NCBI GenBank assembly: GCA_050250255.1
Contig: JBFWOZ010000042.1
Span: forward strand, 1 to 26,507
Direction: 5' to 3'
DNA: 26,507 nucleotides
DNA from: Bdellovibrionales bacterium
GTDB taxonomy: Bacteria; Bdellovibrionota; Bdellovibrionia; Bdellovibrionales; DASUEL01
The position numbers were made by a program, and so were the translations under genes. The notes beneath the pieces are model-generated. The model searched no databases. It saw only the letters and a list, made by a program, of their open reading frames with translations, and was not told the DNA's origin. This document shows, in pieces, positions 128 through 9,696 of the stretch. Each line of letters begins with the position of its first letter. Within the stretch, counting starts at the first letter, position 1.

Positions 128-1954
128 CTACTTACAACAGTATTGAACATCATAAGCTGTGCCCGCATCGGTCATTCCGTGTCGAGAGCAGGATTCCGCG
201 CTTGCACGGGTTCCACCAAGAGCGCCGCAAGATTTTAAACACTGGCCATTCTTAGTTCCCCAATGAGGAGACGGTTGCGTGTTTGGATTACAAGCGGGTT
301 GCGTAGGTGAAGGCGCGGGTGATCCCGAAGCCTTACAGCAATAAGCGATGTCGTAGGCTTGGCCTGCATCCACCAAACCATGATTAGAACATGGCGTGGT
401 CATCGCGTGAGTTCCGCCAACAGCTCCGCACGAGCGCAGGCACTGGCCGTTTTTAATTCCCCAATGAGGAGAAGGTTGCGTGCTTGGATTACATGTTGGC
501 TGTGGAGTAGGTGAAGGCGTTGGTGTTGGAGCAGGCGTCGGAGCCGGAGTTCCCGAAGGCTTACAACAATACTGAACATCGTAAGCAGGGCCTGCATCAC
601 TTAAGCCATGGTTCGAGCACGGAGTGTTCGTCGCTTGAGTTCCACCAAGCGCACCACAAGAACGTAAGCACTGCCCGTTTTTGGTTCCCCAAGTAGGAGG
701 CGGTTGGGTGCGCTCATCGCAACTTGAAGGAGGTTGAGGTGGTACAGAATCAGAGACCCACCAATTTGGAATACATCCATCCCAGGTGGCCGAGACGTAA
801 TTTGTTCTTGGAATGGAATCTCCTGAGAAATCCACATTGGATCCTGGAGCGACACTGTAACTGCTCATGCTTTTTGTTCCGCAAGAGGCCGCAAAACTTC
901 CACCCGAATTCGTAACACTGTTATTCGCCAGTCTTAGATTAGCCGTGTGATCGATACTGAATCCTTGCTGGGCATATCTGACCGCATTGTCGTAAACGTT
1001 TCCGCCAAGAACGGGAAGTCCTGTACCTGGGCTTAACCATGCGTCGTTACCGATGTAGATACCAAAACCACATCGACGGCTTGTGCCACAATCAACGGTG
1101 TTGTTATGAACATTTGTTCCGGTGAAATCGCCATTGTGATTGGGAACTCCTCCACCGAGCATGATCCCTGCAAAGGACGATAACAAAAACGATGAGCTAT
1201 GAGTGATCGAGTTGTTACGTACGCTACAATTTTTGCAAGAGAATAAGATAAGATCGACGTCGCTATTATCGCGAATTTCGTTATCTTCAACGGTGACATT
1301 TTCTCCGTTGAGGACGGTGATTCCGTCAGACCAAAGGGAGCCTGTGTGCTGACCATTGGAAACAATAGAATTATTTTTTATAAGTAAGTGAGGGGTTGTC
1401 ATGGTTTGTAATCCAGAACCACACATGGTTTCTTTCGAAACGATATTAGTGACGACGTTGTTCGGGCCATTGATAGAAATGTTAACGCCATACTGGTTGT
1501 TGCCAGCTTTACATTCGTTCCCTCCGATGGCAGAGGTGCGGGCGCTTCGATTTCCATTGATCACAAGGTGATCAAGCCGAGTGTTGGCAGCATCTACAAA
1601 TAGAAGACCGTAGAGTCCTCTTAGTTCAGGGCGACCGATGAGCTCGGCACAACTTGAATCATCGATGTAGTTACATTTCACATCGGTGAACGATCGGCCT
1701 TGGGTTTTAAGTGTGAGAGATTTTCTGATAGCGATTTGCTGACCCACATAGTATTTGCCAGGAGGAAGTTCTAGGGTCCCACCATCAGGAGTCGCATCGA
1801 TACACGCTAGGAGTATGCCACTTGCGTCGTTTTGCGTACCCTGGTACGGAATGAGGCTCGTACAAACTCCTGCAACAGCAAAGCTGTTGAAGAGAGTAGA
1901 GGCTGTTAGGGACACAACAAGCATCGAGACTCTGATATATAATTGATTTGTCAT
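128..1954 (-). CDS. Secreted right-handed parallel beta-helix (pectin lyase-like) protein with three C-terminal Cys-rich repeats
   Basis: N-terminal signal peptide. GGTLELPPGKYY precedes Asn/Gly-rich beta-helix rungs (DGITV..ENVTVEDNEIRDN, SVRNNSI, NVYDNAV). Pro/Thr linkers separate three 54-aa repeats. Confidence 0.85.
   Translation of the reverse strand: MTNQLYIRVSMLVVSLTASTLFNSFAVAGVCTSLIPYQGTQNDASGILLACIDATPDGGTLELPPGKYYVGQQIAIRKSLTLKTQGRSFTDVKCNYIDDSSCAELIGRPELRGLYGLLFVDAANTRLDHLVINGNRSARTSAIGGNECKAGNNQYGVNISINGPNNVVTNIVSKETMCGSGLQTMTTPHLLIKNNSIVSNGQHTGSLWSDGITVLNGENVTVEDNEIRDNSDVDLILFSCKNCSVRNNSITHSSSFLLSSFAGIMLGGGVPNHNGDFTGTNVHNNTVDCGTSRRCGFGIYIGNDAWLSPGTGLPVLGGNVYDNAVRYAQQGFSIDHTANLRLANNSVTNSGGSFAASCGTKSMSSYSVAPGSNVDFSGDSIPRTNYVSATWDGCIPNWWVSDSVPPQPPSSCDERTQPPPTWGTKNGQCLRSCGALGGTQATNTPCSNHGLSDAGPAYDVQYCCKPSGTPAPTPAPTPTPSPTPQPTCNPSTQPSPHWGIKNGQCLRSCGAVGGTHAMTTPCSNHGLVDAGQAYDIAYCCKASGSPAPSPTQPACNPNTQPSPHWGTKNGQCLKSCGALGGTRASAESCSRHGMTDAGTAYDVQYCCK
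131..721 (-). repeat. Three 162-bp intragenic repeats (131-292, 332-493, 560-721), each encoding a 6-Cys domain
   Basis: Translated consensus CxxxTQPxPxWGxKNGQCLxSCGAxGGTxAxxxxCSxHGxxDAGxAYDxxYCCK. Confidence 0.95.
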
Positions 1955-3458: not shown

Positions 3459-3476
3459 AGGAAAAATGGATGGGTG
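3459..3476 (-). mobile_element. att-like partial copy of the tRNA-Gln 3' end (distal)
   Basis: AGGAAAAATGGATGGGTG versus AGGAAAAAATGGATGGGGTG at 6435-6454. AAAAATGGATGGG (3462-3474) is a 13-bp exact match. Confidence 0.7.
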
Positions 3477-3522
3477 TTTATTCTTCTTCTAAGATATTGA
3501 TTTCATTAGACTATAATTTCAA

Positions 3523-3552
3523 GGTAACCAAAAAGTAACCGTCCTGAAATGC
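3523..3552. repeat. Arm-like site: GTAACC twice at 11-bp spacing, with an adjacent TCCTGAAATGC motif
   Basis: GGTAACCAAAAAGTAACC resembles 4332-4348 and 6305-6321. 3542-3552 is the reverse complement of 4307-4317. Confidence 0.65.
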
Positions 3553-3566
3553 ACTGAAATAGTCGC

Positions 3567-3598
3567 TTTACTTATTATAACCATTTGGTTATAATAAG
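3567..3598 (+). promoter_or_regulatory. Sigma70 promoter of the TA operon overlapped by a palindromic operator
   Basis: TTTACT (3567-3572), 17 nt, TATAAT (3590-3595). Palindrome CTTATTATAACCA-tt-TGGTTATAATAAG (3571-3598). Confidence 0.85.
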
Positions 3599-3603
3599 AG
3601 TCG

Positions 3604-3936
3604 ATGAAAGTATCGTTTTTTACTTCGTTCTCTGGACGTTGTTATGTTGAAGACTTTATTGATGGTTTAAGCAGAAGCGATCAGGCTGCTATTTTAGCTG
3701 TATTAAAAGATGTTGAAGGTTACGGGTTTTCTGCGGTTGGTTGTCAGTTTCGGCAAATTGAAGGCAAGCTTTGGGAAATTAAAATCAAAGCGCCAACCGG
3801 TGGTTACAGAATATTTTATGCGATGCTTTCAAGTTCGGAGATGATGTGTCTTCATGCTTATAAAAAACAAGGACAGAAGGCGCCGAAGAAAGAACTTGAA
3901 GTTGCAAGAAAAAGATTGAAAGAGGTTTTGTCATGA
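3604..3936 (+). CDS. Type II TA toxin, RelE/ParE superfamily (HigB / Gp49-like)
   Basis: Motifs V.DFIDGL, GKLWEIKIK..GGYRIFY and LHAYKKQGQKAPKKELEVARKRLKE. The toxin lies upstream of an HTH antitoxin with an ATGA overlap. Confidence 0.9.
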   Translation: MKVSFFTSFSGRCYVEDFIDGLSRSDQAAILAVLKDVEGYGFSAVGCQFRQIEGKLWEIKIKAPTGGYRIFYAMLSSSEMMCLHAYKKQGQKAPKKELEVARKRLKEVLS

Positions 3937-4232
3937 AAAAGAAATCATTAGATCAGTTGGTCAAAAAATATAGCAAAAATGAAGAGTTTAAAATCGCTTA
4001 CGAAGAAAGACATTTCTATCTTCAAGTGGCTCATTTAATTCGCGATCTGCGAGAGAAAGCAGGTTTTTCTCAAGCCCAAGTCGCCAAAAAAGCTAAAGTC
4101 AGTCAACCGATGATTGCACGTTTAGAGAGCGGGGATAGTCGACGTACTCCAACGATTGATACAGTTCACAAGATCTTGATGATTTTAGGATATCAGTTGG
4201 TGCTGGAAGTAAAGCCTGCTGGGGCTGCGTGA
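3933..4232 (+). CDS. XRE-family HTH antitoxin (HigA-like)
   Basis: IRDLREKAGFSQAQVAKKAKVSQPMIARLESG..PTIDTVHKI; overlaps the toxin stop codon. Confidence 0.9.
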   Translation: MKKKSLDQLVKKYSKNEEFKIAYEERHFYLQVAHLIRDLREKAGFSQAQVAKKAKVSQPMIARLESGDSRRTPTIDTVHKILMILGYQLVLEVKPAGAA

Positions 4233-4267
4233 ACCGTAGAACCCTATGTGACCGGTACGGACCAACC

Positions 4268-4281
4268 AAAAATGGATGGGG
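4268..4281 (-). mobile_element. att-like partial copy of the tRNA-Gln 3' end (middle)
   Basis: AAAAATGGATGGGG is identical over 14 bp to 6439-6452. Confidence 0.75.
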
Positions 4282-4306
4282 CGACGACATGTCACGTAAT
4301 GTCCTG

Positions 4307-4348
4307 GCATTTCAGGATGTTTCAAGTGGTTGGTTACCAAAAGTTACC
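4307..4348. repeat. Arm-like site: ATTTCAGGATGTTTC motif plus GTTACC twice
   Basis: GGTTACCAAAAGTTACC at 4332-4348. 4309-4323 matches 6332-6346 at 13 of 15 positions. Confidence 0.65.
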
Positions 4349-4363
4349 ATCCTACAGTTTCAA

Positions 4364-5008
4364 TTACGGTATTTGAAAGCTTTGCTGTTGTGTCAGATAA
4401 AACTCAACTCTTCTGGTGAGACTAATACCTTTACTTTGTGCATGTAGCGAGTAAAAATATTTCTCTGAAAAGGCTCTTTTAGGATATTTATTAAGATTTT
4501 CTTTGCAAAACTCATATATACGCGCAGAAAAATTTTTTGAGCCGTCGTTTAATACTTGCAAATTTCGCAACTGATTGCATGAGTGTAAAACACTTTGAGG
4601 ATTCCCTTGGTTGTAAAGGGTTAATACTGTTTGCTTGATATGTTCTATATCGTCAAAATACTCGTACTCGAGTTTTGGTCGTGAATTAACAATTACCGTG
4701 TCTATATCTATAGCTTCTTGAAGCATAAAGTCTTTGATGTCGGTTCTAAACGAAGTATAGCAGGGAAAACTCTCTAAATCGGCAACAACCCATAGTCTTT
4801 TGTCATTTTGTTTGTTGTCGTTTAGTAGCCATTTATCCTTAAATAAGGCTGTCTTTATATATGAATCGCTTTTACAATTCCTCAGATAAACTTGTTTGCT
4901 GCCATTCACAATCTCAGAAATATCATCAGCAAAGACAATCCCCTTACTCCTTAATAGGGAGGCAATAAAATTAACTTCGCTAAAACCCTCAACGTAGAAG
5001 AATTCCAT
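4364..5008 (-). CDS. TOPRIM-like protein (DUF4276/RloB/AriB-type), partner of the upstream ATPase
   Basis: N-terminal FFYVEGFSE, then WVVADLE and a later LEYEYFDD. Starts 3 nt after the ATPase stop. AT-rich. Confidence 0.6.
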   Translation of the reverse strand: MEFFYVEGFSEVNFIASLLRSKGIVFADDISEIVNGSKQVYLRNCKSDSYIKTALFKDKWLLNDNKQNDKRLWVVADLESFPCYTSFRTDIKDFMLQEAIDIDTVIVNSRPKLEYEYFDDIEHIKQTVLTLYNQGNPQSVLHSCNQLRNLQVLNDGSKNFSARIYEFCKENLNKYPKRAFSEKYFYSLHAQSKGISLTRRVEFYLTQQQSFQIP

Positions 5009-5011
5009 ATT

Positions 5012-6133
5012 TTACTGAACTGTATACAGCTTAGATTTTGAAATATGTTTTTGATAAATTTCCCAATTCGTCATTTTGGCATCCTGTAGCAGTTTTGCTG
5101 TTTCAGGATTTTCAGTGGGAACTCTTGCATGCACAGCAATTCCTTTGCGGCTAAAAACTCTCCAGTGACTAGGCGAAATAAAGTTACAAGTTACTGGGGA
5201 GTGCGACGAAAAGAAAATTTGTGAATCAGTTGAACGTTCGACTAAATATTCCAATATTGATCCAACATTCTCGTAATCAAGACCATTATCGATTTCATCA
5301 ATGATAATTAATGAGGGTACCTTGCCGGTCACAGAGTCTTTAGAGATCGACAGGGCAATTATTCCCAATACTCTCAGCATTCCCATTGAACAGTCAATTT
5401 GGTTAACGACCTCGCTTACATTTTTTTCAGCAAACCCTAAGATTGGGTATGGAATATTTGGTAAATTTACGGCGACAAAATCCTGAATTTCAAAAAAGAA
5501 TGTTTTAAATGTATTTAGTAATTCTGTGTATAGATGAGGCATGCTTTGCTTCCACTGTAAAACAACACTTCCTAGATTGTTCAAGTTTTCATCTGGAATG
5601 AAGTGACCGGGACCAACAGCTAAATTAGAGGGGTTGTATTTATCGGTACGCAGAAGTCGAACGCCTTCAAAAAAATCTCCTAATTTCTTTATTGTTGGAA
5701 AAATTTTTTCGCTACCTGATATTAACTTGGTTACTGAGTGTTGAGGCGGAAAGAGTTGTTTTACTTGTTTCTTTTCCTGTTCATTGAAGAACTCTTTTGT
5801 CTCCGATGAAAAAAGAACAATATTCTTTGAGGAATTCGTTATTTTTTCTGTTAATAACTGTCCTGGATGTACAGTTAAATCATAGATAATTACTTCATTG
5901 GAATCTATATCTCGGAATGTTAGTTCAAATTTTGCAGTTGATATTATGGATGGCGTTTGGCTGTTTTTTACATGGATGCTTTTTAAAAAACTCAAACGAT
6001 TAAATAGCTGACTCTTGCCGGAGGCATTTTTTCCTATAATTAAATTATAGCGATCGAATTCCACAATACTGTTTTGCCAGTATAAATTGCTACCCTTATG
6101 TTCTTCCATTTTATAAGATGTTAATTCAAGCAA
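5012..6133 (-). CDS. ABC-type ATPase of the AAA_21/AAA_15 (AbiEii/RloA/AriA-like) class
   Basis: Walker A NLIIGKNASGKS; signature-like CSMGMLR; Walker B/D-loop LIIIDEIDNGLD; H-loop FFSSHSP. No transmembrane partner. TTG start after AGGGAG. Confidence 0.85.
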   Translation of the reverse strand: MLELTSYKMEEHKGSNLYWQNSIVEFDRYNLIIGKNASGKSQLFNRLSFLKSIHVKNSQTPSIISTAKFELTFRDIDSNEVIIYDLTVHPGQLLTEKITNSSKNIVLFSSETKEFFNEQEKKQVKQLFPPQHSVTKLISGSEKIFPTIKKLGDFFEGVRLLRTDKYNPSNLAVGPGHFIPDENLNNLGSVVLQWKQSMPHLYTELLNTFKTFFFEIQDFVAVNLPNIPYPILGFAEKNVSEVVNQIDCSMGMLRVLGIIALSISKDSVTGKVPSLIIIDEIDNGLDYENVGSILEYLVERSTDSQIFFSSHSPVTCNFISPSHWRVFSRKGIAVHARVPTENPETAKLLQDAKMTNWEIYQKHISKSKLYTVQ

Positions 6134-6293
6134 ACGAAGCTCCCTGTATATTTCTAAGATATAATTAGAAGAGCCTGATGTTCAAATCTTTATCTTGGTA
6201 GATAGTGCATCATAAACTTATATATGCTGCAGGTTCTAATCAGGTCAACCTCCCGCATCTGAGCAAGTCCCACAAAAAATCGCTTCCAGCGAA

Positions 6294-6346
6294 GTTACCA
6301 AGGTGTTACCAAAAAGTTACCTCGCGCTGAAATTTCACGACGTTTC
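6294..6346. repeat. Arm-like site: GTTACC three times at 11-bp period, plus ATTTCACGACGTTTC
   Basis: GTTACC begins at 6294, 6305 and 6316, about 120-150 bp 3' of the tRNA end. Confidence 0.7.
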
Positions 6347-6443
6347 TTGAAACGTCAGTCGACCTCTAATTCTCTAATCAAATTAAACAAATACACGAAT
6401 CCCTTGAGGGATTTTGAAGGTACTAAAAATGTGCAGGAAAAAA

Positions 6444-6518
6444 TGGATGGGGTGGGAGGATTCGAACCTCCGAATGGTGGAATCAAAATCCACAGACTTA
6501 CCACTTGTCGACACCCCA
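6444..6518 (-). tRNA. tRNA-Gln (anticodon UUG)
   Basis: TGGGGTG/CACCCCA acceptor stem; D-loop AGTGGTAA; anticodon arm GTGGA-TTTTGAT-TCCAC; T-arm GGAGG-TTCGAAT-CCTCC; encoded CCA; 75 nt. Confidence 0.97.
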
Positions 6519-9602: not shown

Positions 9603-9696
9603 CATATAAAAAGTCTCCGGGCCTTTTTTCTGGCTACGTAGCGTCCACTTTGTGAAGCAATGTAGCCAGAAAAAAGGCCCGGAGACTTTTTATATG
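9603..9696. repeat. 35-bp perfect inverted repeat with a 24-nt spacer
   Basis: CATATAAAAAGTCTCCGGGCCTTTTTTCTGGCTAC (9603-9637) and its exact reverse complement (9662-9696). Confidence 0.95.

Follow-up and report, generated by a model that had tools for sequence, protein, structure and literature searches.

How can a locus that encodes no recombinase carry, behind a single tRNA gene, several copies of what look like the attachment sites of a mobile element? The question is raised by contig JBFWOZ010000042.1 of a Bdellovibrionales bacterium (GenBank assembly GCA_050250255.1), which was analysed over its whole length of 26,507 nucleotides (the window). In our comparison it is contig C42 of genome G000, a 99%-complete assembly of 3.09 Mb in 95 contigs; other genomes, contigs and loci are given G, C and L numbers in the same way. 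Behind the tRNA-Gln gene of this contig stand two small units in tandem, one with an ATPase-TOPRIM gene pair and one with a toxin-antitoxin (TA) pair. They are real, integrase-less units bounded by attachment (att) sites, and they belong to a Bdellovibrionales ICE (integrative and conjugative element) system at tRNA-Gln. They are likely passengers of the type called cis-mobilizable elements (CIMEs), which would excise and re-integrate only with an integrase and an excisionase supplied by an ICE; we put the probability of this reading at about 0.55.

Core repeats behind the tRNA-Gln gene

The target gene and the three copies of its 3' end are as follows.
6444..6518, minus strand: tRNA-Gln(TTG), the target gene, found by ARAGORN as the sole tRNA-Gln of the assembly
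6439..6452, minus strand: core 1, the tRNA 3' end CCCCATCCA with the T run, by sequence search
4268..4281, minus strand: core 2, by sequence search
3462..3474, minus strand: core 3, by sequence search

A search of the window places the 13-mer core AAAAATGGATGGG at 3462-3474, 4268-4280 and 6439-6451, and its 14-mer version at 4268 and 6439 only. A Markov model expects 2.2-2.4e-4 copies of the 13-mer per 3 kb on one strand, so two extra copies within 3 kb are far beyond chance, and the claim of three core copies that was first made from the letters alone (starting at 3462, 4268 and 6439) holds. Against it, three more copies of the 13-mer occur elsewhere in the 3.09-Mb genome, where 0.46-0.50 are expected; they appear to fall in coding sequence. 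The distances from core to core are 2,171 bp for the ATPase-TOPRIM unit and 806 bp for the TA unit, which together hold only four open reading frames (ORFs). Their GC contents are 35.8% and 38.6%, lower than the 45% of the host genes on their right. Domain and fold searches agree with the gene content first assigned to each unit. The two units are not equivalent, both arms being present in the ATPase unit only.

Architecture of the attachment arms

The cores are parts of full attachment sites, which the original prediction overlooked and which consist of GGTAAC arm repeats and 10-bp-periodic arrays of RTKTC pentamers at fixed spacing.
6294..6438, minus strand: left arm (~150 bp), three GGTAAC repeats and a pentamer array, aligned with 23 other left arms
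6316-6321, 6305-6310 and 6294-6299, minus strand: GGTAAC repeats of the left arm (motif positions)
6349-6353, 6339-6343 (variant) and 6329-6333, minus strand: 10-bp-period pentamer array ahead of these repeats (motif positions)
4282..4348, minus strand: right arm of the ATPase unit ('type C'), with a GGTAAC pair at 4343-4348 and 4333-4338, 53 bp to core 2
4289-4323, inverted: type C array of the ATPase unit, four RTKTC pentamers with a 10-bp period
3475..3560, minus strand: right arm of the TA unit ('type B'), with a GGTTAC pair at 3535-3540 and 3524-3529, 50 bp to core 3
3556-3560 and 3546-3550, minus strand: type B array of the TA unit, two ATTTC

The right arm of the TA unit also has, at 3490-3502, a match to the integration host factor consensus.

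Within this genome, arm-profile matches at E<0.01 are confined to contig C42. Among 384 genomes of the order, the left-arm pattern occurs in 33 and the right-arm-plus-core pattern gives 22 matches in 19, with a gap of 50-53 bp; the reversed control gave 0 in both cases. The window's left arm is of full length with three perfect GGTAAC, and its 108 bits lie within the range of ICE left arms (the arm is itself part of the profile). Most named records that share this left arm bear the label Bdellovibrionales or one close to it. Of 120 loci given by the genome-collection scan, 20 passed the arm filter; the remaining 100, judged to be chance matches or to belong to other systems, were set aside. 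A metagenome scan for type B arms gave nine loci, of which three are real and apparently represent two arrangements already known. Searched for without a core, the type B pattern does not rise above chance (17 genomes, with about as many control matches); arm hits were used only if core-linked or supported by the profile.

The right arms fall into two groups. Integrase sequence lies upstream and no periodic array is present at 14 of the 22; a periodic array is present, with no integrase sequence within 1.3 kb, at seven; one, at a contig end, is untestable. In five of the seven the array stands outside the arm pair at a distance of 4-5 bp (type B, core 3 among them); in two it is inverted between arms and core (type C, core 2 among them). 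The type C build of the window also occurs in G344, which is its nearest neighbour by filler sequence, and the four-pentamer run at 4289-4323 is the sole run of that length in this genome.

Phage lambda offers a familiar case of a tyrosine-integrase att system with arm sites and an oligomeric excisionase. Another parallel is the IntS/RdfS system of ICEMlSymR7A, in which attP has five arm sites and RdfS binds next to an arm site at one per 10 bp (PMC11963761). The attP core reconstituted from the window likewise has five arm repeats (2 + 3) and a 10-bp-period array next to the arm sites; it differs in its motifs, here GGTARC and RTKTC, and protein binding is here a prediction. By this analogy, the GGTAAC repeats are predicted to be integrase arm sites and the pentamer array is predicted to hold excisionase sites. 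A dif/XerCD reading of the GGTAACC repeats was rejected, the repeats standing at fixed distances from tRNA cores and beside ICE integrases.

Two further motifs were seen around these arms. The motif GGTTCTACGGTTY lies at 4231-4243 (minus strand) of the window and at loci L013/L031, L053, L062, L200, L284 and L288. It is 16-183 bp downstream of an att core in seven of the eight genomes whose examined loci carry it, mostly at sites of a shortened or absent left arm; about nine tandem 8-bp copies occur in G029, and the exception lies beside a P4-like integrase on G000:C36. The GGTAAC arms also serve a different core, CCCCGCCA, at L060 (G008:C43) and L285 (G242:C7). In G242 this core goes with a 62%-identical integrase, and in G008 with an integrase-less unit of 2 kb, behind which lie several TA-like pairs.

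The parent ICE family

Of the 22 right arms, 13 have the end of an integrase gene of ~364 aa close upstream; one of these genes is broken and another runs into a contig end. The element of G027 is complete from tRNA-Gln to the right core at 28.2 kb, G250 carries elements of 27.6 and 13.9 kb in tandem, and that of G032 measures at least 46 kb. VirB4-, VirB9-, VirB10- and coupling-protein domains are encoded by the G026 and G032 elements; cut-off scores were not reached by VirB6, by an HTH_17 gene ahead of the G344 integrase or by a MobC-like relaxase. The integrases of G248 and G035 form a divergent subgroup, and genomes of that subgroup carry left arms resembling that of the window. The layout is tRNA, core, left arm, cargo with type IV secretion genes, a small HTH gene, integrase, right arm and core. 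The parent of the arms is thus an ICE family of 13.9 to at least 46 kb with the integrase at the tRNA-distal end, and the sites in the window are, as the original prediction had it, genuine junctions of a tRNA-targeting tyrosine-integrase system, with core-linked arms in relatives. The stop of the TOPRIM gene in the window lies 16 bp ahead of the right arm, where the parent integrase would end. Literature searches (supplements not included) found no description of this ICE family, of its arms or of any Bdellovibrionales ICE.

An 11-kb integrase-bearing element, L227 (G344:C9 16153-27240), has no secretion system. It carries HATPase, helicase, methylase and AbiE genes, and is a possible defence island of the tRNA-Gln att family.

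Integrase-less units in related genomes

In place of close relatives, the tRNA-Gln/spoVG region was compared across 40 other genomes, and 13 units were set against eight integrase-bearing elements. Integrase-less units with both arms are found in G010 (1.2 kb, RES domain), G032 (3.3 kb, Gp49-HTH TA pair), G344 (3.6 kb, RES-Xre and Schlafen), G117 (3.6 kb, Fic-like by reading, core lost) and G008 (2.0 kb, at the sister core), and behind the ICE of G026 lies a TA unit that lacks a left arm. Five genomes (G032, G026, G096, G344 and G200) have units adjoining an integrase-bearing element. These observations support the view that such units are non-autonomous, that stacking at tRNA-Gln is common and that the cargo is rich in TA and defence genes, as first proposed for the window.

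Several of the units keep scraps of an ICE: a 33-aa integrase tail in G023, an integrase piece in one G096 unit, and ICE left-end sequence in the G032 unit (83% identical over 249 bp) and in another G096 unit. An integrase tail in G200 and an ICE-type first gene in the G344 unit were recognized by reading only. No ICE protein match was found in the window units or in those of G010, G008 and G026.

The ATPase-TOPRIM unit

The unit next to the tRNA holds two genes.
5012..6133, minus strand: 373-aa ABC/AAA_21 ATPase, predicted defence sensor (PF13304 E 1e-17; PADLOC matches)
4364..5008, minus strand: 214-aa TOPRIM-fold protein, predicted nuclease effector (invariant residues and fold matches)

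The PADLOC matches of the ATPase (AriA 2e-20, AbiLi 3e-19, HEC-01A 4e-16, and also MAD3) are about equal and all distant. Its closest homologues are 58-61% identical, and two of these lie on short contigs equal in size to those with partner homologues. The 214-aa protein has no Pfam match and no named-defence-system model match of its own; 7 of its 20 homologues match one HEC-01B model, and HEC-01B and AbiLii matches are weak. E7-G8..E11 and D77 are invariant in the 20 homologues. A model built from 20 sequences reached a pLDDT confidence score of 93 and replaced an earlier four-sequence model (pLDDT 61) that gave middling matches only. Its best fold match is the TOPRIM region of the OLD C-terminus (Foldseek template-modelling score 0.52, E 1.6e-3; Z 11.4, root-mean-square deviation 4.5, 174 aligned), followed by PH0156, OLD and an AriA-AriB chain. 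The TOPRIM call that had been made from the translation is thereby upheld.

The pair has the order of HEC-01/AbiL-like two-gene systems, an ABC ATPase gene and then a TOPRIM-fold gene. It resembles HEC-01, AbiL, PARIS and OLD-type systems in this layout and in its conserved acidic residues, and differs from them in having distant profile matches only. The pair is predicted from its sequence to act in phage defence. This role stays a prediction because HEC-01, which has the ATPase + TOPRIM layout, gave no protection in the assays of its report (bioRxiv 10.1101/2024.01.29.577857).

The TA unit and an IS481-like stub

The second unit holds a TA pair with its own predicted promoter.
3567..3597, plus strand: predicted sigma-70 promoter TTTACT-17-TATAAT, overlapped by a perfect 12-bp inverted repeat
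3604..3936, plus strand: 110-aa Gp49/RelE-HigB-type toxin (PF05973 E 2e-18)
3933..4232, plus strand: 99-aa HTH_3 antitoxin, HigA-like (PF01381 E 8.5e-14)
4243..4264, minus strand: 22-bp stub of an IS481-like element end, at the expected left-arm place of the TA unit, with copies elsewhere in the genome

The 12-bp inverted repeat is likely the antitoxin operator. The stub is identical or near-identical to ends that lie 9-11 bp behind four other tRNA genes of the genome. Its distance to the CCA is the same as at these real tRNAs, which suggests that the flank of core 2 once followed the tRNA and that the ATPase unit probably arrived last.

The other ends of this IS481-like element are at C24:17706 and 44467, C35:29418 and C89:108, behind tRNA-Met (two), tRNA-Pro and tRNA-His, and three of these copies run into contig ends. 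In its longer copy the sequence corresponds to the 3' end of a transposase gene, which scores 221.8 bits on the IS481 model NF033577 (cut-off 224). This placement suggests an insertion sequence (IS) that targets tRNA 3' flanks, for which a literature search gave no match.

Search for a recombinase or helper

As originally predicted, there is no recombinase gene anywhere in the window, and six-frame searches found no integrase fragment in it, with the seven tyrosine recombinases of the genome as queries or with a profile built from 13 integrases of cognate ICEs (best E 1.5). A genome-encoded integrase flanked by the same core and arms, the partner that had been suggested as a check, was not found in the assembly: its nearest integrases share 46% and 44% identity with the G026 enzyme, and the arms at which they end are TTGCTTC, with cores resembling tRNA-Pro and tRNA-Met. 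The XerC/D-like, C25, C76, C80, C36 and C40 recombinases were considered as helpers and rejected on identity and on arm and core sequence. Two viral scans for a phage helper (14 and 1 loci) gave no locus with an arm-profile match. The cognate helper is therefore absent from this assembly, whose 95 contigs leave room for a missing ICE.

A sister ICE-type system is present in the same genome at C37:23326-23490, C25:27568-28668 and C80:4047-5138. It has the same ATTTC-like array, TTGCTTC arms and tRNA-Pro- and tRNA-Met-like cores, and conjugation-like genes lie on C25. At C40 11746-12288 the genome encodes a 180-aa tyrosine recombinase consisting of the catalytic domain only, with no obvious surrounding element.

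The CIME reading and its proposed course

The CIMEs are described as ICE or integrative and mobilizable element (IME) derivatives without recombination and transfer genes, in which attL and attR persist and which move by accretion when another element comes in (PMC5704250, PMC7563491). Classical sizes given there are 1.2-13 kb, for derivatives of streptococcal ICEs and IMEs. The window units hold no integrase or excisionase gene and, in their four ORFs, which have no match from ICE ORFs, no relaxase, coupling-protein or type IV secretion gene. The ATPase unit keeps attL and attR (core, left arm, right arm, core), and so does the composite from core 1 to core 3, with one left and one right arm. 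The TA unit alone has no left arm, and between core 2 and the antitoxin stop there are 36 bp with the IS stub. The ATPase unit and the composite thus have the structure that defines a CIME, and the TA unit alone does not. Derivation from an ICE or IME by deletion is a possible origin: the arms are common to units and ICEs, and backbone remnants occur in the G023, G032 and G096 units, while the window units have none. The window units do not have the integrase and relaxase or transfer origin (oriT) of an IME: there is no integrase, and no shared oriT-like segment was detected.

The likeness to CIMEs extends to the cargo, to stacking at one target gene and to size, within or near the classical range. 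The present units differ in belonging to another phylum and ICE family, in the integrase at the tRNA-distal end of their parents and in the extra periodic array of integrase-less right arms; their mobility is predicted from sequence.

In the proposed course of events, the TA unit would have entered first. An IS481-like element may then have landed behind the tRNA, with loss of the TA unit's left arm, and the ATPase-TOPRIM unit would have entered last, at the tRNA end. The 2,171-bp unit could circularise through its cores, and a 2,977-bp composite could do so with core 1's left arm and core 3's right arm; an 806-bp circle would not be expected. Transfer between cells would occur in cis, in a composite formed with an ICE that has integrated at one of the cores, and the TA pair would favour retention. 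The original prediction of mobilisation in trans is right in that the integrase must come from elsewhere; intercellular transfer is more likely in cis with an adjacent ICE, because no internal segment common to units and ICEs suggests an oriT. The contigs of three landfill-metagenome runs of one study showed no joint at any core, and since contigs drop rare variants, this is no evidence either way on excision. A second sample of that study covers parts of both units.

Weighing the explanations

Several observations count against the CIME reading. The window units have no ICE backbone remnant, so that their descent from an ICE is inferred and not seen. The extra type B and C arrays occur at 0 of 14 integrase-linked arms, which plain deletion does not explain. 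There is no close relative to show gain or loss at the cores, the family having one other genome. The ATPase is present in 0 of the other 383 genomes at E<=1e-30, and spread of this very unit is therefore unsupported. Streptococcal CIMEs reportedly always lie farthest from the target gene (PMC7563491). This rule holds in G032, G026 and G096 and fails in G344, where the tRNA is followed first by the integrase-less unit and then by the integrase-bearing element.

The array is the starting point of another explanation, in which type B and C units form a satellite lineage of their own, att-only cassettes whose right arm is built for the purpose with additional excisionase sites; visiting ICEs would integrate and excise them in trans, and they would be exchanged independently of these. 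Bdellovibrionales would then carry 1-4 kb satellites that, through the extra array, are excised in response to the excisionase of an arriving tRNA-Gln ICE, which might also control the adjacent TA operon; the locus would be a swappable defence stack. The separation of arrays from integrase sequence among the right arms argues for it, although its Fisher value of 7e-5 overstates the case, the classes having been defined after the data were seen and the genomes being related. The array stands 4-5 bp from the arm pair in type B and 7-8 bp in left arms, so a type B arm is not a simple left/right fusion. The B fillers cluster weakly and are mostly mutual nearest neighbours (permutation 0.019), the two C arms are each other's nearest neighbours, type B and C units occur in at least five families, and six of seven type B arms adjoin a divergently read gene, a TA toxin in four. 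Against this stand the start of the G032 and G344 units with ICE left-end genes, the lack of an oriT-like sequence common with ICEs, the core-free type B pattern at chance level, and the searches in which neither an identical cassette in two different hosts nor an autonomous element with type B or C arms was found. We regard such satellites as possible, though on balance unlikely.

That successive ICE insertions left both units behind as dead remnants, preserved only for useful or addictive TA and defence genes while their arms no longer recombine, seems improbable. It would suit the missing left arm and IS stub of the TA unit, the many relatives with truncated arms or broken integrases and the lack of a helper in this assembly; yet the left arm of the ATPase unit is intact, both right arms keep the 50-53 bp spacing and all four genes are open. 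The decay that the original prediction offered as its alternative is nevertheless real in part, in the TA unit without its left arm and in the ICE scraps of several relatives, and the cassette and decay readings merge in the CIME concept. It is very improbable that a resident recombinase (XerC/D or the 180-aa C40 enzyme) operates the locus as an integron-like array. Small cassettes with TA and defence cargo, in a genome with seven tyrosine recombinases, would fit it, but the arms are those flanking the specific 364-aa ICE integrase family, no recombinase gene is at the locus, the genes run in both orientations and the TA pair has its own predicted promoter. The functional likeness to an integron array first proposed is not supported: neither a resident recombinase nor a cassette promoter was found, and in place of IntI, attI and attC hairpins the boundaries are tRNA-derived cores with direct-repeat arms.

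Integron cassettes are small, often carry TA pairs and are moved by a recombinase encoded elsewhere. Acinetobacter pdif modules are described as alike in these respects. The present units differ from both in their long ICE att arms at a tRNA, in place of XerC/D sites or attC hairpins, and in that the recombinase is not resident.

Other features of the window

A 608-aa predicted secreted beta-helix protein is encoded at 128-1954 (minus strand), with three cysteine-rich C-terminal repeats and Pro/Thr linkers between them. A 43-bp inverted repeat at 9603-9696 (93% complementary, 8-nt loop) overlaps the end of an M48-like protease gene; contigs break and vary there, so it is probably a repeated element.

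Significance

An ICE family and its att system at tRNA-Gln are now defined with base-level ends in predatory Bdellovibrionales, together with a route by which these bacteria may collect TA and defence genes. A survey of 20,000 genomes reported no CIMEs (PMC10201445); such elements are missed by integrase-anchored tools, and arm patterns detect them directly. With integrase, excisionase candidate, core and arms known, the system could be turned into a tool for site-specific integration in Bdellovibrio. Should the special arms be functional, the units would be evolved parasites of ICEs and not debris.

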